Part shown: positions 47,069-56,909 of the stretch, one piece after another
How the letters are laid out: each line of letters begins with the position of its first letter
Position numbering within the stretch: the stretch's first letter is position 1
NCBI GenBank assembly: GCA_040397175.1
Contig: JBBAWM010000002.1
Coordinates: 1-64,000 of the forward strand
DNA from: Candidatus Limnocylindrus sp.
Lineage (GTDB): Bacteria; Chloroflexota; Limnocylindria; Limnocylindrales; Limnocylindraceae
Reading direction: 5' to 3'
DNA: 64,000 nucleotides
Translations under genes and position numbers: made by a program
The notes under the pieces: generated by a model
What the model was told of the DNA's origin: nothing
Seen by the model: only the letters and a program-made list of their open reading frames with translations
The model's database searches: none

Positions 47069-47491
47069 ATGTCTGAGCGGATGCCCCGTGTCGATGAGCT
47101 GCTTAGGGAAGAGATCAGTGCCCATATTGGCCGCTCACTCAGTGATCCACGGCTCGGCTTTGTGACCGTGACCTCTGTGTCAACATCACCAGACTTGCGG
47201 CACGCAAAAGTGTTTGTCAGCACTATCGGCAGTGAAGAACAACGAGTCGCCTCGCTTGCAGCGCTCAAGAGTGCCGCTTCTCACCTTCGCACCGTCATCG
47301 GCAAGGGGCTGCGTATTCGCCGCGTTCCTGACCTGCATTTCGAACTGGATGAGGCGGGCGATCGTGGCGCACGCATTCAGCAGCTACTGGGAAGCATTGC
47401 CGATGGAGGCCTCCCACCTGAGACGCTCTCGCCGCTTCCGGCTCCGACACGCACAGGAGTGGAAGAGAAGATCCGGAGGAGTAAGGGATGA
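47069..47491 (+). CDS. rbfA: ribosome-binding factor A
   Basis: DPRLGFVTVT, SPDLRHAKVF, RRVPDLHF. Confidence 0.94.
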   Translation: MSERMPRVDELLREEISAHIGRSLSDPRLGFVTVTSVSTSPDLRHAKVFVSTIGSEEQRVASLAALKSAASHLRTVIGKGLRIRRVPDLHFELDEAGDRGARIQQLLGSIADGGLPPETLSPLPAPTRTGVEEKIRRSKG

Positions 47492-48555
47492 GCGAGCAGG
47501 GGATGGTGCACGCAGCGGAGTACCTCACCCGCGCGGGTAACTTGCAAGCGACCGCACGGGGCGCCGTCCCTGCAAATGTACTAGCGGCTTTACGTTCGGC
47601 AAAGCGGTTATGGGTTGTACCGCACGAGCGACCAGACGCCGACGCCCTTGGCGCCGCGCTCGGACTCAAGGCAATCCTCGGGCAGCTTGGCGCGGAGGTC
47701 GTCGTGATCAGCGCCGATGCTCCGCCTGCGGTATATGACGTCATCCCCACGATTCGTGAGGTTTCCCTTGAGGCACCAACCTGGGCCCCAGATGCGATCG
47801 TGCTGGTCGATTGCGCCGATCCAACGCGTGCCGGTCGCATTGGCGATCTCATCAACGCACTCCCAGCCTCAACGCCACGAATCCTGATCGATCACCATGT
47901 TTCCAACGAAACTACGTGGCCCATCGCTTGGGTTGATGCGCACGCCGCTGCAACCTGCGAAATGGTCAGTCTCATTGCGCTTGCGCTGAAAGCAGATCTC
48001 TCAGCAGACGACGGAAGGCTGGCCACGACGCTCGCGGCGGGCGTGATCATGGATACCGCCACCTTTCAACATGGCAACACGACTTCGCGGACCCTTGAAG
48101 TTGGCGGACTCCTTCTTGCGGCAGGTGCGCCGATCAGTGAGATCTCCCGAAAGATCTACCGTTCCAAGCCCCTGGCGCAGGTACAGCTGCACGCGCGTGT
48201 TTTGGCCAGCCTTGCTGCATCGGATGGGGGTCGCACCGTCTTCGCCACCATGACGCTCGGCGACCTGACGGAGTGCGGAGCCACGCTGGAAATGAGTGAA
48301 GGCATCGTTGACTCACTGGCACATGTGGCTGAGGCTGATGTGGCGATCTTCTTCAAGGAGGATGGCCCAGCCTCCGCGCGCATCTCCGTGCGGACGAAAG
48401 GGGAGGGACCCGACGCCACCGAGGTCGTTGGCGCATTCGGTGGTGGCGGTCATGCTCGCGCCGCGGGCGCGACCATTGGCCTCCCCGTTAACGAGGCCGT
48501 CACCTTGGTGCTGGCGCGCGTGACGGAGCTTCGCGCGCACGCTGTAGCGGGCTGA
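47488..48555 (+). CDS. nrnA: DHH/DHHA1 nanoRNase / pAp phosphatase
   Basis: HERPDADALG, DC, IDHH, DT..F, SVR, GGGGHARAAG. Confidence 0.9.
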   Translation: MSEQGMVHAAEYLTRAGNLQATARGAVPANVLAALRSAKRLWVVPHERPDADALGAALGLKAILGQLGAEVVVISADAPPAVYDVIPTIREVSLEAPTWAPDAIVLVDCADPTRAGRIGDLINALPASTPRILIDHHVSNETTWPIAWVDAHAAATCEMVSLIALALKADLSADDGRLATTLAAGVIMDTATFQHGNTTSRTLEVGGLLLAAGAPISEISRKIYRSKPLAQVQLHARVLASLAASDGGRTVFATMTLGDLTECGATLEMSEGIVDSLAHVAEADVAIFFKEDGPASARISVRTKGEGPDATEVVGAFGGGGHARAAGATIGLPVNEAVTLVLARVTELRAHAVAG

Positions 48556-50361: not shown

Positions 50362-50442
50362 TGCTACCCTATGTACATCCAAGATGTGATGAAGAGATGA
50401 GGGGTGCCCTTGGAGCACCTCCGATGTAAGGAGAAGTACCAC
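50362..50442 (+). promoter_or_regulatory. rpsO extended -10 and structured leader
   Basis: TGcTACCCT (50362-70); hairpin GGGGTGC..GCACCTC (50401-50421); SD AAGGAG. Confidence 0.5.
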
Positions 50443-50712
50443 TTGCCACTAGACCAAGCAACAACCGCACGCATCGTTGCAGACAACGGGCGTCACGGTA
50501 CTGATACTGGGTCCGCAGACGTTCAGATCGCACTCCTGACGGAGCGCATTCAGGGACTGACCGCGCACCTGCAAACCTTTAAGCAGGACAACCATTCGCG
50601 CCGCGGGCTCTTGAAGCTCGTCGGTCAGCGACGTCGACTGCTGACATTTCTCAAGCGTGAAGATGCAGCGCGCTACGCCGCGCTCTCCGAGAAGCTCGGA
50701 CTTCGTCGCTAA
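50443..50712 (+). CDS. rpsO: 30S ribosomal protein S15
   Basis: [40 protein letters not shown]; start TTG 50443. Confidence 0.97.
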
Positions 50713-50788: not shown

Positions 50789-53386
50789 ATGAGCAACATC
50801 ACCAGCGTTTCCGCCGAGTTCGGCGGTCAGACCCTCACGATTGAGACAGGCCGAATGGCCCGCCTCGCCGGTGGCGCAGTCACCGTTCGCTACGGCGACA
50901 CCGTGGTCCTTGGCACTGCAAACCGCAGCGAGCCACGACCAGGCCTCGACTTCTTCCCACTCACGATTGAGTTTGAAGAGCGCATGTACGCCGCGGGAAA
51001 GATCCCGGGCGGTTACATCAAGCGCGAAGGGCGAGCCTCCGAGAACGCAACGCTCTCCGCGCGTCTCACCGACCGACCGATTCGCCCACTCTTCCCAGAG
51101 GGGTACAAGGATGACGTTCAGGTTGTTATCACCGTGCTGAGCGCAGACCAGGAGAACGACCCAGACATCCTTGGAACGCTCGCGGCATCTGCAGCGCTCA
51201 CCATCTCCGAGATTCCGTTCCTTGGGCCAATCGGCGCAGTGCGCGTCGGCATTGTGAACGGTGCCTTTGTTATCAACCCAACGTTCGACCAGCTCAAGGA
51301 GAGCGATCTCGACTTGGTAGTTTCAGGAACCGTTAGCGCGATCATGATGGTCGAGGCTGGCGCGAACCTGATCACCGAAGAGAAGATGGCCGAGGCCATT
51401 GAGTTCGGTCATAACGCCATCAAGGCGCTCGTTGCCCTTCAGGAGGAGCTGCGCGCCAAGGTCGGCAAGCAGAAGCGCGTTCCATACATCGAGCCAAGCA
51501 CCGACAGCGTGCTGGCGTTTGCCGAGGCGGCCGCAAACGGTGGCACATTCGTGATCGTCGATACGGAAACTACCGGCCTTGACCCGAAGATTTCTGACCT
51601 TGTCGAAGTTGCGGCAGTGAAGGTCAAGGGTGGCAAGATCACCGACCGCTGGAGCAGTTTTGTTGATGCCGGCAACGACATCGTTGGCGCCCAGATGCAT
51701 GGCATCACCAACAAGGAGATCCAGGGCGGCCTCACGCCGAAGGCAGCGGCCGAGAAGATTGCTGAATTCGCCAAGGGCGCAATCCTTGTCGGACACAACC
51801 TTGGCTTTGATGTCGCCTTCCTCGATGAGGCACTCGGCAAGGGTCGCTCATTTGCAACCGAGCAGGGGAGCTACCTCGACACCTATGTCCTCTTCAAGGA
51901 GGCGTACCCAGAGAGCGAGTCGTTCAAGCTCGGAGATCTCGCACGCGTTTATGGCGCAGCGACCACTCCGAACCATCGAGCGGCCGCTGACGCGGAAGCA
52001 ACAGCAGAGCTCTTGCTGATCCTCGCCAACGAACTCCCAGGTCGCCTCGCGACGCTCAAGGAGGGGATTGCCGATTCGATCCGTGCCGCCCGTAGCGGCA
52101 AGGGCGAGCCAAAGGCGATCTTTGAGGCGGCACGCCGTAAAGCGCGCGTCGGTAGAAACCTCTTCGGCTGGATGCATAAGAAGACGGCGCGTAACCTCAC
52201 GATGAAGGAGGGGATTCGCCTCGACGGTCGGAAGGTCGACGAGATCCGCAAGATCTCGGTAGAGGTTGGTCTGCTCCCACGCGCACACGGCTCAGGCCTC
52301 TTCACCCGCGGTGAGACCCAGGCGTTGAGCGTGGCAACCCTTGGCCCAGTGGCACAGGGACAGCGTCTCGACACGATCTCGCCGATCACCGAGAAGCGCT
52401 ACATCCACCACTACAACATGCCGCCGTACAGCACCGGTGAGAACAAGCCGATGCGTGGCCCAGGGCGACGCGAAATTGGGCACGGAGCCCTTGCCGAGCG
52501 AGCACTCATCCCAGTGCTCCCTTCGATCGAGGAGTTCCCGTACGCCATCCGAGTCGTCTCAGAGTGCGTAACCTCTAACGGATCGACCTCAATGGCCTCA
52601 ACTTGCGGTTCGAGCCTCTCGCTCCTTGATGCCGGCGTGCCGCTCAAGGCGTCGGTGGCTGGCGCCGCAATGGGCCTCATGTCGGAGCCAGACGGCGAAT
52701 TCATCGTCCTCACGGACATCCTCGGCAAGGAGGATGCCTTCGGCGACATGGACTTCAAGGTGACCGGTACCCGTACGGGTATCACGGCCTTGCAGATGGA
52801 CATCAAGGTGCAGGGGATCAACGGGGCGATCATTCGCACCGGCCTCAAGGATGCGCTTGCCGCCCGACTCGAGATCCTCGACAAGATGGACGCGATCATC
52901 AGCACGGCTCGACCAGAGCTCTCTGATTTCGCCCCACGCATCACCACGATCAAGATCAATCCGGAGAAGATCCGCGACATCATTGGTAAGGGTGGCGCAG
53001 TGATTCGCAAGTTGCAGGATGACTTCCAGGTGAACATCAACGTACAGGACGACGGCACCGTGCAGATCGCTTCGGCTGATCCAGAGCGCACCAAGGGTGT
53101 CCTTGATGCGATCAATGGAATCACCAAAGAGGTTGAACTCGGCGCGCTCTATATGGGCAAGGTGACCCGCATCATGGGCTTCGGCTGCTTCGTTGAGATC
53201 CTTCCAGGTAAGGAAGGCCTCGTACGCATCGGCGAGCTTGCCGACTACCGTGTGAACACGGTTGAGGATGAGGTCGCCGTGGGCGACGAGATCATGGTGG
53301 TGGTCACCGAAGTCGACCGCCAGGGTCGCGTCAACCTGTCGCGCCGCGCCGCCATGCAGCGTCATAAGGCCGCGCCTCAAGAGTAA
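50789..53386 (+). CDS. pnp: polynucleotide phosphorylase with an inserted DEDDh 3'-5' exonuclease domain
   Basis: PH1 (ETGRMA, DFFPL, IPGGYIKREG, DRPIRP), DEDDh insert (DTETTG/HNLGFD/HRAAAD), PH2 (RLDGR, RGETQ, RREIGHG, SNGSTS, GDMDFKV), KH, S1. Confidence 0.96.
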   Translation: MSNITSVSAEFGGQTLTIETGRMARLAGGAVTVRYGDTVVLGTANRSEPRPGLDFFPLTIEFEERMYAAGKIPGGYIKREGRASENATLSARLTDRPIRPLFPEGYKDDVQVVITVLSADQENDPDILGTLAASAALTISEIPFLGPIGAVRVGIVNGAFVINPTFDQLKESDLDLVVSGTVSAIMMVEAGANLITEEKMAEAIEFGHNAIKALVALQEELRAKVGKQKRVPYIEPSTDSVLAFAEAAANGGTFVIVDTETTGLDPKISDLVEVAAVKVKGGKITDRWSSFVDAGNDIVGAQMHGITNKEIQGGLTPKAAAEKIAEFAKGAILVGHNLGFDVAFLDEALGKGRSFATEQGSYLDTYVLFKEAYPESESFKLGDLARVYGAATTPNHRAAADAEATAELLLILANELPGRLATLKEGIADSIRAARSGKGEPKAIFEAARRKARVGRNLFGWMHKKTARNLTMKEGIRLDGRKVDEIRKISVEVGLLPRAHGSGLFTRGETQALSVATLGPVAQGQRLDTISPITEKRYIHHYNMPPYSTGENKPMRGPGRREIGHGALAERALIPVLPSIEEFPYAIRVVSECVTSNGSTSMASTCGSSLSLLDAGVPLKASVAGAAMGLMSEPDGEFIVLTDILGKEDAFGDMDFKVTGTRTGITALQMDIKVQGINGAIIRTGLKDALAARLEILDKMDAIISTARPELSDFAPRITTIKINPEKIRDIIGKGGAVIRKLQDDFQVNINVQDDGTVQIASADPERTKGVLDAINGITKEVELGALYMGKVTRIMGFGCFVEILPGKEGLVRIGELADYRVNTVEDEVAVGDEIMVVVTEVDRQGRVNLSRRAAMQRHKAAPQE

Positions 53387-53462: not shown

Positions 53463-54512
53463 ATGAGCAACGCATCGAACCCAGAAGGTTTCGTCGTCGC
53501 CGTCCTCGGCGCCACTGGACTCGTTGGGCAGACCATGATCTCGGTGCTTGAAGAGCGCAACTTCCCTGTGCGCACGCTTATTCCACTTGCTGCCACGAGC
53601 GGTGGGCGCACCGTTCGCTTTCGTGGCGCCGATATCTTGGTGCAACAGGTTCAACCAGACTCGTTCAACGGCGTCGATCTTGCGCTTTTCAGCGCAGGTG
53701 GCGCCGCAAGCTTGACGTATGCGCCAGAAGCGGCGGCCCGCGGCTGCGTCGTTGTCGACAACTCCAGCGCCTGGCGCATGGATCCGAGTGTGCCGCTGGT
53801 TGTCTCGCAGGTAAATCCAGGGGCGCTCGCAACGCACAACGGCATCATTGCGAACCCGAACTGCTCGACCATGCAGCTTGCGCCGCTATTAAAAGCGCTC
53901 TCTGATGCGGCCGGTTTACAGCGGGTGGTTGTCGCCACGTATCAGGCGGTCTCGGGTGCCGGCTCAAAATCAGTGGCTGATTTAGTTCAACAGCGAACCA
54001 CCCTTGTGAATGGCGGCACACCCACTTCGACCATCTATCCGCATGCCGTCATTTCGAGCCCAATCCCCGCGATCGATGTGTTCCTTCCTGATGGCTCCAC
54101 CAAAGAGGAGGCCAAGGTCGTCAATGAGAGCCGGAAGATTCTCGACCTGCCGAACCTGCGTATCTCTGCAACGGCGGTCCGTGTTCCCGTTGAACGGAGC
54201 CACTCCGAGGCGGTGCACGTTGAGCTATCGCGGGCGCTGAGCCCCGACCAAGCTCGTATCGTCTTTGCTGCGATGCAGGGGGTAACCCTGGTAGACGATC
54301 CAGCAAGTCATTCCTATCCACTTGCAGCAGATGCGTCCGGCAGTGACGAGATTTATGTCGGGAGAGTGCGCACCGACGCCAGCGTTGAGCATGGGCTTGC
54401 CTTCTGGGTGGTGAGTGACAACATCCGCAAGGGTGCGGCGACGAACGCCGTTGAGATTGCTGAGCTCTTGGTCAGCATGAACCTGGTCCATGGAGCCAGT
54501 CACGTCGCCTAA
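53463..54512 (+). CDS. asd: aspartate-semialdehyde dehydrogenase
   Basis: GATGLVG, DNSSAWRM, ANPNCST, TYQAVSGAG, VRVPV..HSE, DNIRKGAA. Confidence 0.96.
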   Translation: MSNASNPEGFVVAVLGATGLVGQTMISVLEERNFPVRTLIPLAATSGGRTVRFRGADILVQQVQPDSFNGVDLALFSAGGAASLTYAPEAAARGCVVVDNSSAWRMDPSVPLVVSQVNPGALATHNGIIANPNCSTMQLAPLLKALSDAAGLQRVVVATYQAVSGAGSKSVADLVQQRTTLVNGGTPTSTIYPHAVISSPIPAIDVFLPDGSTKEEAKVVNESRKILDLPNLRISATAVRVPVERSHSEAVHVELSRALSPDQARIVFAAMQGVTLVDDPASHSYPLAADASGSDEIYVGRVRTDASVEHGLAFWVVSDNIRKGAATNAVEIAELLVSMNLVHGASHVA

Positions 54513-55173
54513 CCGAATCGCTCTCGAGCTCGCCTCGGTCGCCCGCGACGCCTCCACCTGTACGGCGTGTGCGCTCTCAGCCACAAGAACCCAGACGGTC
54601 CCCGGCGAGGGGAGTCCTACGGCAGCCCTGGTTTTCGTTGGGGAGGCCCCGGGAGCGCGGGAAGATCTGGCTGGTCGCCCGTTCGTTGGCGCGTCTGGTC
54701 GCCTTCTGGACGACCTCCTGGCCTCGATCGGCCTACGGCGCGACGAGATCTTCATCCTGAATACGGTGAAGTGTCGGCCACCAGCGAACCGCAATCCCCA
54801 GCGCGCAGAAACTGCTGCCTGTGCCTCGTTCCTCACACGGCAGTTGAAGGCGTTGCAGCCCCGGGTGATCGCCACCCTCGGGAGGCACGCACTTGCTGTC
54901 TTTGCGCCAAGCGCGAAGATTGCCGAGGTGCACGGACGTCCCCACGCACAGACAGACGGTGATCAGCGCGGTGGTGCGGTGCTCTTTCCCCTCTATCACC
55001 CCGCAGCGGCACTCCACAACGGGAGCCTGCGACCAGCCTTAGAGCGCGATATGGCGGCCCTGGGAGAGTTTCTCTCCATGAATGCTCGCGAAGAGGCGGG
55101 GGAGGCTACCCTACGCGAGGTGGATTCGGTGCCGACTCGGCGCCGTTCCAGCATGCAAGGGGAGGCTGAATGA
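54490..55173 (+). CDS. udg: uracil-DNA glycosylase family 4 (4Fe-4S)
   Basis: CTAC, GEAPG..ED..GRPFVG, NTVKCRPP.NR.P, YHPAA. Confidence 0.92.
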   Translation: MEPVTSPNRIALELASVARDASTCTACALSATRTQTVPGEGSPTAALVFVGEAPGAREDLAGRPFVGASGRLLDDLLASIGLRRDEIFILNTVKCRPPANRNPQRAETAACASFLTRQLKALQPRVIATLGRHALAVFAPSAKIAEVHGRPHAQTDGDQRGGAVLFPLYHPAAALHNGSLRPALERDMAALGEFLSMNAREEAGEATLREVDSVPTRRRSSMQGEAE

Positions 55174-56909
55174 CCCAACGCCCGCAACCGGCACGCCGAC
55201 CAGCTGAGGCGAGACGCCCCCAGGAAACACGCAGGCCGCACAAGGCGGCTACCAGCGGCCCGGCACTCCGTCTGATCCCGCTCGGCGGCATGGGGGAGAT
55301 CGGGAAGAACCTCTACCTGTATGAGTACCAGGACACCATCATCCTCGTTGACTGTGGCCTCGCCTTCCCCGATGAGACCACCCTTGGTGTCGACATCATC
55401 ATCCCGGACATCAGTTACTTGCGGGCACGCCGCAGCGCCGTGAAGGCGGTCCTCATCACCCATGGACACGAGGATCACGTCGGTGCGCTCCCGCACATCC
55501 TCCCTGAGCTCCCGGGGGTGCCCGTCTACGCCAGCACCCTTGCACGAGGGCTCTTGGCAAACAAGTTGAAGGAGTTCAAGGTCACCGCCAATCCGCTGCG
55601 ACCGCTCGACCCAGGCGGCCGACTTGAGGTTGGGCCCTTCACGATTGAACCCTTCCGCGTTGGCCACTCCATTCCGGATGCCATGGGTTACGCGATCCAT
55701 TCACCGGTTGGAACGGTCATCCACACCGGTGACTTCAAGTTTGACCAAACTCCAGCGGATGGCAAGACAGCAGACTTTGCCATGCTGGCAAAATTCGGCG
55801 CCCAGGGTGTACTCGCTCTCGTTTCAGACAGTACACGTGCCGAAGCGCCCGGATATACGCCGAGTGAGCAGGTTGTCGGCCAAGCCTTTAAGGGAATCAT
55901 CAGCAGCGCACCTGGCCGCGTGATCATTGCCACCTTTGCCTCCAACATCGCGCGAATTCAACAGGTGCTCGATGCGGCAGGGGAGTTCCATCGGAAGGTA
56001 GCCGTCGTCGGTCGTTCGATGGAGCAGAACGTCAAGATCGCTCGCGACCTTGGCTATCTGAAATTCCCAACTCCACTCCTTGCCAAAGAGGAGATTGCGC
56101 GCCGCACGAAGGAGCCGCTCGTGATCGCAACGACGGGCGCGCAGGGCGAGCCGATGGCTGGCCTTGCCAAGATGGCGAATGGCGAGCACCGCAATGTAGA
56201 GATTCAGAACGGCGATACCGTGATCGTTTCCGCATCACCGATTCCAGGCAACGAAGAGGCGGTCGGCAGAACGATTGACAATCTTTTCAAGTCTGGTGCT
56301 AACGTCATCTATCACTCGATTGCCCAGGTGCACGTTTCAGGTCACGCCTCACAAGAGGAGCTGAAGATGATGCTTGCACTCACCAAGCCAAAGTACTTCG
56401 TGCCCATGCATGGCGAGATGCGCATGCAGGTGGCCCATGGGCGCCTTGCAACGCAGATGGGGGTACCGCCTTCTGCGGTCTTTATCATTGATAACGGCAC
56501 GCCAGTTGAGTTCTCTGCAGATGGCAGCGCACGACGTGGTAAACCAGTTGAGCACGGCTCAGTTTTCGTTGATGGATCATCGGTTGGCGAGATCAGCGAG
56601 ATCGTACTCCGCGATCGACGCACCCTGGCCGACGACGGAATCGTCGTCGTGATTGCAACGATCGATGCACGTACCGGAAAGCCCGTCGGCCGCCCAGCCC
56701 TAGTTACCCGTGGATTCCTCAATGGCGACGAGGATAATAAGCTTGTTGAAGAGGCAATCACGATTGCCCTCAAGGCAATCCAACACAAAGGTGATCGCGG
56801 TGCTGAGGCCGGCCTGATCAAGGCCCAGTTGAGCGAATCGGTTTCGCGATTCCTTGGTAAGGAGACGCGACGTCGTCCACTCGTGGTTCCTGTGGTGGTC
56901 GAGGTTTAA
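55170..56909 (+). CDS. rnj: ribonuclease J
   Basis: PLGGMGEIGKN, THGHEDHVG, HSIPD, TGDFK, FASN, HVSGHA, PMHGE. Confidence 0.96.
   Translation: MTQRPQPARRPAEARRPQETRRPHKAATSGPALRLIPLGGMGEIGKNLYLYEYQDTIILVDCGLAFPDETTLGVDIIIPDISYLRARRSAVKAVLITHGHEDHVGALPHILPELPGVPVYASTLARGLLANKLKEFKVTANPLRPLDPGGRLEVGPFTIEPFRVGHSIPDAMGYAIHSPVGTVIHTGDFKFDQTPADGKTADFAMLAKFGAQGVLALVSDSTRAEAPGYTPSEQVVGQAFKGIISSAPGRVIIATFASNIARIQQVLDAAGEFHRKVAVVGRSMEQNVKIARDLGYLKFPTPLLAKEEIARRTKEPLVIATTGAQGEPMAGLAKMANGEHRNVEIQNGDTVIVSASPIPGNEEAVGRTIDNLFKSGANVIYHSIAQVHVSGHASQEELKMMLALTKPKYFVPMHGEMRMQVAHGRLATQMGVPPSAVFIIDNGTPVEFSADGSARRGKPVEHGSVFVDGSSVGEISEIVLRDRRTLADDGIVVVIATIDARTGKPVGRPALVTRGFLNGDEDNKLVEEAITIALKAIQHKGDRGAEAGLIKAQLSESVSRFLGKETRRRPLVVPVVVEV

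Follow-up and report, generated by a model that had tools for sequence, protein, structure and literature searches.

The window considered here is a stretch of 64,000 nucleotides from Candidatus Limnocylindrus sp. (Chloroflexota, class Limnocylindria; contig JBBAWM010000002.1, positions 1 to 64,000), whose genome assembly spans 1.38 Mb and is 91.5% complete. On the forward strand lies pnp, the gene for polynucleotide phosphorylase (PNPase), encoding a protein of 865 residues with a DEDDh-type 3'-5' exonuclease domain inserted between its two RNase PH domains. An initial annotation, made from the letters of the DNA, had described this layout; the single open frame at 50789-53386 and the Pfam scan agree with it, the latter recovering RNase_PH, RNase_T, KH and S1 as predicted, and the positions given for D258, E260, H336, D341, H396, D401 and R477-LDGR are all exact. 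The gene is made up as follows.

50789..53386, + strand: pnp, 865-aa polynucleotide phosphorylase with inserted DEDDh domain (single open frame, Pfam, TIGR03591)
50789..51472, + strand: RNase PH domain 1, aa 1-228 (Pfam RNase_PH and RNase_PH_C; 50% identity with E. coli Pnp)
51473..51544, + strand: N-terminal linker, aa 229-252; a helix is predicted at aa 238-249 (DSSP on the AlphaFold2 model)
51545..52033, + strand: predicted DEDDh 3'-5' exonuclease domain, aa 253-415 (PF00929 at aa 255-409; D258, E260, D341, H396, D401)
52034..52216, + strand: remodelled helical domain, aa 416-476 (AlphaFold2 helices; last helix homologous to PF03726)
52217..52918, + strand: RNase PH domain 2 with the phosphorolytic site R560, R561, H565, S599, S601, D649, D655 (Pfam; alignment to E. 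coli Pnp)
52943..53347, + strand: RNA-binding domains KH, aa 719-775, and S1, aa 782-853 (Pfam)

The full set of Pfam matches comprises RNase_PH twice, RNase_PH_C, RNase_T (PF00929), KH_1 and S1. The match to PF00929 is well above its cut-off (E 2e-25; 90.7 bits against 24) and contains ExoI D-x-E, the ExoII aspartate and ExoIII H-x4-D, the codon of D258 being at position 51560. TIGR03591, the model of bacterial PNPase, scores 917.9 bits in two stretches (cut-off 525.05). The order of its domains (RNase PH twice, then KH and S1), the phosphorolytic site and an rpsO-linked locus further mark the protein as a bacterial PNPase; among the features tested, the intact all-alpha helical domain (PF03726) is the only one that was not found. 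The genome holds three RNase_PH matches, two of which are Pnp, the third being a 256-codon RNase PH frame.

Canonical bacterial PNPases (structures from Staphylococcus aureus, 5yjj; E. coli, 7ogk and 3cdi; Caulobacter crescentus, 4am3; Streptomyces antibioticus, 1e3h) share with the fused form the PH1-PH2-KH-S1 order, the phosphorolytic residues and rpsO-pnp synteny, and both halves are 50-53% identical to the E. coli protein; they differ from it in that the fused form has about 160 extra residues, the DEDDh domain, and a remodelled helical domain. According to a review, one domain structure is common to all PNPases (PMC8836086). In the openly accessible main texts searched, supplements aside, no paper on a PNPase-DEDDh fusion was found, in line with what the initial annotation had supposed; the sequences themselves are public. 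In PMC8195603 'PNPase' means purine nucleoside phosphorylase, which has no bearing on the fusion.

Conservation and descent of the fused enzyme

Five families of Limnocylindria are compared: f1 and f2 form one order, f4 belongs to another, and f3 and f5 are unfused sister families. All 97 fused proteins of alignment A1 (89 from f1 and f2, 8 from f4) retain the five DEDDh and the seven phosphorolytic residues, and KH_1 and S1 are matched, so that the earlier view of two complete catalytic sites with intact RNA-binding domains holds. In a first set of 121 fused proteins each DEDDh residue was found in 120 or 121, a single row lacking D258 and E260. Pseudo-enzymes usually lose some of their catalytic residues. 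After removal of saturated pairs, the ratio of nonsynonymous to synonymous substitution rates (dN/dS) of the insert is 0.041 in a set of 8 genomes (27 of 28 pairs) and 0.097 in a set of 9 (31 of 36 pairs); the RNase PH domains range from 0.019 to 0.058, the insert thus being at about twice their value and still under strongly purifying selection. GC content at third codon positions is 0.69 in the insert and 0.73-0.78 in the remainder of pnp.

Among the Chloroflexota genomes searched, the fusion is confined to, and fixed in, three families. A match running through the insert was found in 100 of the 101 genomes of f1, f2 and f4 (151 class genomes searched), 96 with one full-length match and 4 in pieces or cut short; only G081 gave none, and the count without two unpublished f4 genomes (G108 and G144) is 98 of 99, no other result depending on that pair. 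In f3 and f5, 48 of 50 genomes match and the listed matches end before the insert, a figure that rests on those matches, with 55 lower rows besides; extraction confirmed the plain form of 736-749 residues in ten. Among 401 genomes of the phylum, a query spanning the junctions aligned end to end only in f1, f2 and f4 (46 genomes). An unfused PNPase query splits at the insert in 15 of 15 genomes from these families, and with the same query no insert appeared in 116 Chloroflexota of other classes, 115 giving one continuous match and one giving two overlapping pieces.

In the tree of the PNPase core, f1, f2 and f4 (94 in the Shimodaira-Hasegawa-like approximate likelihood ratio test, SH-aLRT) stand against f3 and f5 (99), and the insert tree reproduces the split of f4 from f1 and f2; both are quick trees with E. 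coli as the only outgroup. The adjacency of rpsO and pnp is found in 20 of 20 class loci, fused and unfused, with the same gene order in both. Because the distribution is fixed, the core and insert trees match and the gene order is shared, the fusion was gained once, in the ancestor of f1, f2 and f4, and then descended vertically. It predates the freshwater genus with genomes of 1.0-1.4 Mb and is fixed in relatives of 1.7-4.1 Mb; a reason sought in scarce phosphate is therefore not supported, and phosphate scarcity in lakes cannot be its origin.

Protein searches return the same fusion. The junction region is covered by 465 proteins among 8000 scored candidates, and the 120 listed all have PF00929 and PF01138; close homologues come under the source names Candidatus Limnocylindrus and Limnocylindrales (Chloroflexota), and public records annotate the fused proteins as PNPase or as epsilon-family exonuclease. 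No clearly separate fusion was seen among the best 150 rows of a search of 1.84 billion representatives. Independent fusions were considered and set aside: 20 of the best matches from outside the class are 9 DEDD-GIY-YIG-like proteins (7 with GIY-YIG), 8 ExoDinG (DinG helicases with an exonuclease domain) and 3 stand-alone domains, none being a PNPase, and of 171 proteins 46 have PNPase parts, the other close ones reading as fragments or frameshifted copies of the same fusion, with two odd rows (P0282, P0366) falling outside this assignment. One fused PNPase, P0117, is labelled 'Patescibacteria group bacterium' at NCBI. Its identity in the junction region, 56%, is like that of f2 proteins, and it is likely a mis-binned contig, a transfer being the less probable account.

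A chimeric assembly, the doubt raised at the outset, or a recent neutral insertion has next to no chance of accounting for these data. Full-length matches occur in close and distant relatives, 100 genomes carry the fusion, 465 proteins match the junction region, and dN/dS below 0.1 and a GC content close to that of the rest of pnp speak against a neutral newcomer. In addition, an independent contig from an RNA library (X17 record 19) covers 51415-52401, with both junctions, at 82 differences and no gaps. The comparison covered 4 of 6 RNA-library runs, and the contig shows the joined form and not expression, for DNA may be present in the libraries and there was no silent control stretch.

Kinship of the insert and the rebuilt helical domain

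The initial annotation held the insert to be closer to epsilon and DinG than to Orn, and family models, solved structures and profile scores support kinship with epsilon, PolC and DinG. In NCBIfam it matches PolC, PRK07883-type and DinG models best, with scores well short of the whole-protein cut-offs in every case, and no RNase T model is among the best 25 rows. Of 24 PDB matches to E 1, the best are the PolC exonuclease (1e-20) and S. aureus DinG (2.5e-15), followed by Cas2-DEDDh (1e-8), epsilon (4e-5) and RNase T (2.6e-4; 2f96), and Orn is absent from them. A profile of the insert gives 69.7 bits with E. coli DnaQ, 36.6 with RNase T and 19.8 with Orn. Identity to other DEDDh domains reaches 30-44% at best, and the ESM Atlas returns only generic PF00929 clusters (0.80-0.81).

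All 97 inserts, and none of 128 other DEDDh domains, have a private signature, G300-x-Q302-x-H304-G305, together with a two-residue deletion. In free trees the inserts are recovered together as a clade (SH-aLRT 96 and 93) that excludes the ExoDinG exonucleases of Chloroflexota, which group without them (96; the second tree alike); the approximately unbiased (AU) test does not reject one clade of inserts and f3 ExoDinG exonucleases (p 0.46). These quick trees, of 104 and 50 rows, exclude 5 fusion fragments and lower-scoring stand-alone hits. The phylogeny called for earlier yields a clade of the insert's own and does not single out a donor. DEDDh domains are mobile, and PolC also carries one as an internal insertion. 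PolC (2p1j, 9qpc), ExoDinG (S. aureus 8zef; B. subtilis DinG), PRK07883-type DEDD-GIY-YIG proteins, epsilon and Cas2-DEDDh share with the insert its DEDDh motifs and sequence family, and differ from it in that its host is an RNase and that it forms its own clade with a private signature. Judged by such comparisons, the insert appears to be a DEDDh domain that resembles those of PolC, DinG and epsilon yet falls outside Orn and epsilon, and outside ExoDinG to the extent that the trees resolve it.

Its epsilon-like fold family, a VHG-like motif shared with E. coli DnaQ and the failure to find a canonical dnaQ in this genome raise the thought that the insert is the missing proofreader of DNA polymerase III, which is very improbable. 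TIGR01406, the epsilon model, gives it 62-66 bits against a cut-off of 222.7, a clamp-binding-like motif occurs in 0 of 97 inserts, and the domain is held in place within a large RNase trimer. Moreover, the PHP domain of DnaE1 keeps the full metal motif set (HxH, D, DH, E, H, C and DxH), motifs that, in work on Mycobacterium, are reported to give built-in proofreading; the same is implied here.

As regards the junctions, residues between fixed anchors number 244-251 in fused and 85-93 in unfused proteins. The Pfam scan gives no match of PF03726, the helical domain, in this Pnp, and the family covers only profile positions 45/56-81 in five of five fused relatives, against 4-81 in two of two unfused ones. 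The AlphaFold2 monomer has a mean predicted local distance difference test (pLDDT) of 84.1, about 90 at both junctions, and a predicted template modelling (pTM) score of 0.77. In the model an unbroken helix, 398-436, joins the last DEDDh helix to the helical domain and is followed by helices 441-452 and 456-474; strands and helices of the insert (pLDDT mostly 83-95) seem consistent with a DnaQ fold.

The two flanks had been taken for the split halves of a normal helical domain, a view that survives at the level of significance for the last helix only. The N flank (aa 227/230-254) found no partner in profile alignments against sister helical domains or the flanks of DinG and GIY-YIG proteins; BLAST carries the N-terminal linker weakly onto E. 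coli helix 1, and P232 and S240 in it are invariant. The C flank aligns over its whole length to 9 sister helical domains (probability 92.5-94.8; 65-70 columns; a 14-residue deletion) and in its last 26 columns only to a 23-sequence helical-domain profile, aa 412-453 scoring 13.1 against a shuffled maximum of 13.85 (60 shuffles). By eye, 'NRSEQGDRLEDIRR' of f4 resembles 'DKAQREAGLDELK' of a sister helical domain. It may be that all three helices of the helical domain lie behind the insert; the whole-length alignment is not significant without the last helix. As far as sequences tell, then, the insert sits at or near the start of a helical domain that has been rebuilt and of which only the last helix is demonstrably kept.

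In the rebuilt part R419, R432, R449, R450 and K464 are near-invariant (95-97 of 97 fused rows), and the net charge of the flank is +6 to +11 in f1 and f2 and -1 to +3 in f4; in 23 unfused proteins that of the helical domain is -6 to +4 (mean -2.2). The insert itself is acidic, with a mean charge of -8.8 against -5.8 in other DEDDh domains.

The position of the insert raises the idea that it is mainly a regulatory or structural module, binding metal or nucleotides and gating the PNPase core with little turnover of its own. It replaces part of a domain that is said to regulate the access of phosphate and nucleoside diphosphates to the active site (PMC6181284), and the family-specific deletion and G-x-Q-x-H-G motif alter its pocket; such a role is improbable, since 97 of 97 proteins, drawn from two orders, retain the five catalytic residues and with them the histidine that would act as general base.

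Nuclease repertoire of the genome and the class

The gene order in the window is nusA-infB-rbfA-DHH-truB-ribF-rpsO-pnp-asd-udg-rnj-ftsK, the names being read from translations save for pnp, the DHH gene, udg and rnj. The neighbours of interest are listed below.

47488..48555, + strand: NrnA-like DHH-DHHA1 protein, likely a nanoRNase (NF053633 93.1 bits, cut-off 350; DHHA1 match)
50443..50712, + strand: rpsO, probable TTG start at 50443 behind AGGAGA (the list of open reading frames gave GTG at 50404 instead)
54490..55173, + strand: family-4 uracil-DNA glycosylase, directly upstream of rnj
55170..56909, + strand: RNase J (TIGR00649 561 bits, cut-off 400)

The order pnp-(asd)-udg-rnj recurs in 20 of 20 class loci, which groups a repair enzyme with two RNases.

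Elsewhere in the genome RNase Y, RNase PH and ExoVII are present in addition to RNase J and the NrnA-like protein, and profile searches of it gave no match to RNase E/G, PF01612 (RNase D type) or YhaM. Of dnaQ, orn, rph and rnr, whose possible lack had been raised as a check, rph is present, and no canonical dnaQ, orn or RNase II/R was found. RNase II/R (PF00773) was found in none of 71 Limnocylindria genomes, the control search being positive in 11 of 14 known genomes. The loss of RNase R as a trigger of the fusion was discarded on this count, fused and unfused genomes being alike.

The DinG helicase C-terminal domain has a sharply different distribution: it occurs in 24 of 24 unfused f3 and f5 genomes and in 1 of 47 of the fused lineage. 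The lone match of the latter is a 107-codon piece at a contig end (G064:C69:6-260). In f3 and f5, PF00929 and the DinG helicase domain lie together in one long frame (Pfam-checked for G041), and in 37 of 43 f2 and f4 genomes, among the 71 of the class, the PNPase insert is the only PF00929 match. The loss of ExoDinG relative to the fusion amounts to a single event, one gain and one loss on one branch, n=1.

From this pattern arises the notion that the insert is an exonuclease for single-stranded DNA (ssDNA) or RNA-DNA hybrids that replaced the lost ExoDinG, PNPase serving as a binding platform in repair and in the removal of R-loops. A lineage tends to have a single PF00929 domain, located either on DinG or on PNPase; the best family and PDB matches of the insert are DNA exonucleases, and the AU test leaves room for a common clade. 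Bacillus subtilis ExoDinG is reported to degrade ssDNA and the RNA of hybrids (PMC12525004), and B. subtilis PNPase to degrade ssDNA in Mn2+ and to act in repair (PMC2709576). A correlation of n=1 is set against this, as are the free trees, in which the ExoDinG exonucleases of Chloroflexota group apart from the insert, the linker behind the DinG exonuclease, which does not align with the C flank, and the presence of ExoVII in this genome. On balance a replacement of ExoDinG is somewhat less likely than the RNA-trimming reading set out below, and a close rival to it.

An Orn-like nanoRNase, finishing the products of 2-5 nucleotides left by the ring, would be another use of the insert, and the cleaning up of nanoRNA had been put forward at first. 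No orn was found in this genome, PNPase is reported to leave short products (PMC12685370), and a position on the lower face would suit their capture. Orn is, on the other hand, the relative with the weakest similarity (19.8 bits and none of the 24 PDB matches). The positions that would correspond to the Arg and Ser of the Orn 5'-phosphate cap are hydrophobic in the insert. The cap itself is described in PMC9779919. Furthermore, the NrnA-like gene at 47488-48555, between rbfA and truB and about 2 kb upstream of pnp, has DHH and GGGH motifs and is syntenic at 10 of 10 other fused loci and at 5 of 10 unfused ones, the other five being truncated in the stretch compared or unmatched. As a main role nanoRNA clean-up accordingly loses its ground, and an Orn-like function is quite improbable. 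Orn and RNase T, exoribonucleases by which RNA 3' ends are finished or trimmed, share the DEDDh type with the insert; they differ in being stand-alone homodimers with family motifs (PMC9779919), and their similarity to it is 19.8 and 36.6 bits.

A possible role in trimming RNA ends

The DEDDh insert in the housekeeping PNPase of three Limnocylindria families may well be a tethered, water-using trimmer of single-stranded RNA ends, working 3' to 5' (probability roughly 0.45). RNA is placed first because the host is an RNA-decay enzyme with KH and S1 intact, no other hydrolytic 3' RNase was detected in this genome, and the needs of DNA look covered, with ExoVII present and the PHP motifs of DnaE1 kept.

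PNPase is a trimer with the KH domains on top (PMC3351181). Known PNPase structures show the helical domains on the core ring, remote from the KH/S1 cap; the fused trimer would accordingly have three extra sites on its lower face, and the last DEDDh helix, running unbroken into the helical domain in the model, would hold each nuclease stiffly. In human PNPase, single-stranded RNA has been seen to enter from the bottom in contact with a helical-domain lysine (PMC12685370), and E. coli PNPase stalls at 8-oxo-rG (PMC11572968). The five near-invariant basic residues might form a track along which nucleic acid is held close to the acidic DEDDh site. Its targets could then be ends that stall the phosphorolytic core or that this reversible core lengthens again, or else leftovers of a few nucleotides; the shortening would proceed by two-metal hydrolysis, irreversibly and free of phosphate, and dinucleotides would be left to the NrnA-like enzyme. 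Like its relatives, the insert probably also cuts ssDNA in vitro.

Several points weigh against such a trimmer. The closest families of the insert, the PolC exonuclease, DEDD-GIY-YIG proteins, ExoDinG and epsilon, are DNA enzymes, and B. subtilis ExoDinG is reported to prefer ssDNA and to leave free single-stranded RNA uncut in Mg2+ (PMC12525004). The fusion coincides with the loss of ExoDinG, which fits a job on DNA or R-loops; the unfused sister families manage with plain PNPase and likewise lack RNase II/R; the basic shift of the flank is small in f4 (-1 to +3). The structure of the full human degradosome is said to show entry from the top, disputing entry of RNA from the bottom (10.64898/2026.09.06.749684). 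Finally, with 91.5% of the genome covered, the absences on which the RNA trimmer leans mean 'not found'.

A bolder version sees a one-chain exosome of dual chemistry, with a phosphorolytic ring, three DEDDh heads on the lower face and an arginine track handing RNA ends between the sites; it is a doubtful proposal. Were it true, cells without RNase II or R would have arrived by convergence at an equivalent of the eukaryotic exosome and its hydrolytic partners. The likeness to the eukaryotic nuclear exosome, an RNase PH ring with an attached hydrolytic exonuclease (DIS3/Rrp44 or Rrp6, the latter a DEDD enzyme), is one of outline and an analogy, not membership. Unlike the exosome, the fused PNPase ring keeps its phosphorolytic site, and the hydrolase would be covalent, of DEDDh type, present three times per trimer, with no homology to DIS3. 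In the exosome DIS3 is placed at the bottom of the ring (10.64898/2026.09.06.749684).

Whatever the substrate, a second catalytic domain has persisted in the PNPase region that is least understood, across a whole lineage that runs from streamlined lake cells to relatives of 2-4 Mb. The fused enzyme bears on the role of the helical domain and the lower face, and on how bacteria without RNase II/R finish RNA decay; in one polypeptide, phosphorolytic and hydrolytic 3' decay would be separately switchable, which would allow a direct test of substrate sharing. Should the substrate be DNA or hybrids, the fusion would hard-wire the long-noted and poorly explained link between PNPase and DNA repair.

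Some further observations concern nucleases of the same genome. It has two PF00929 matches, neither being Orn or RNase T by NCBIfam; the one other than the insert is a stand-alone DEDDh protein of 181 residues with a very long tree branch (contig C5, about 11.0-11.6 kb; L052:1474-2019, - strand), about 3 kb from an imuB-like/dnaE2-like pair (C5:3399-8120), and 4 of 4 f1 genomes have a similar second match. DHHA1 matches number two here (a 919-codon frame and the NrnA-like gene) and three in most class genomes, and the DHHA1 scan found no RecJ-sized protein in this genome, G004 or G019. DNA polymerase I (C1:425869-428724) has no PF01612 match and its 3'-5' exonuclease looks degenerate. At L052:245-664 (+ strand), a Lys/Ala-rich protein of 139 residues with KKAA-type repeats is, by eye, histone-H1-like.

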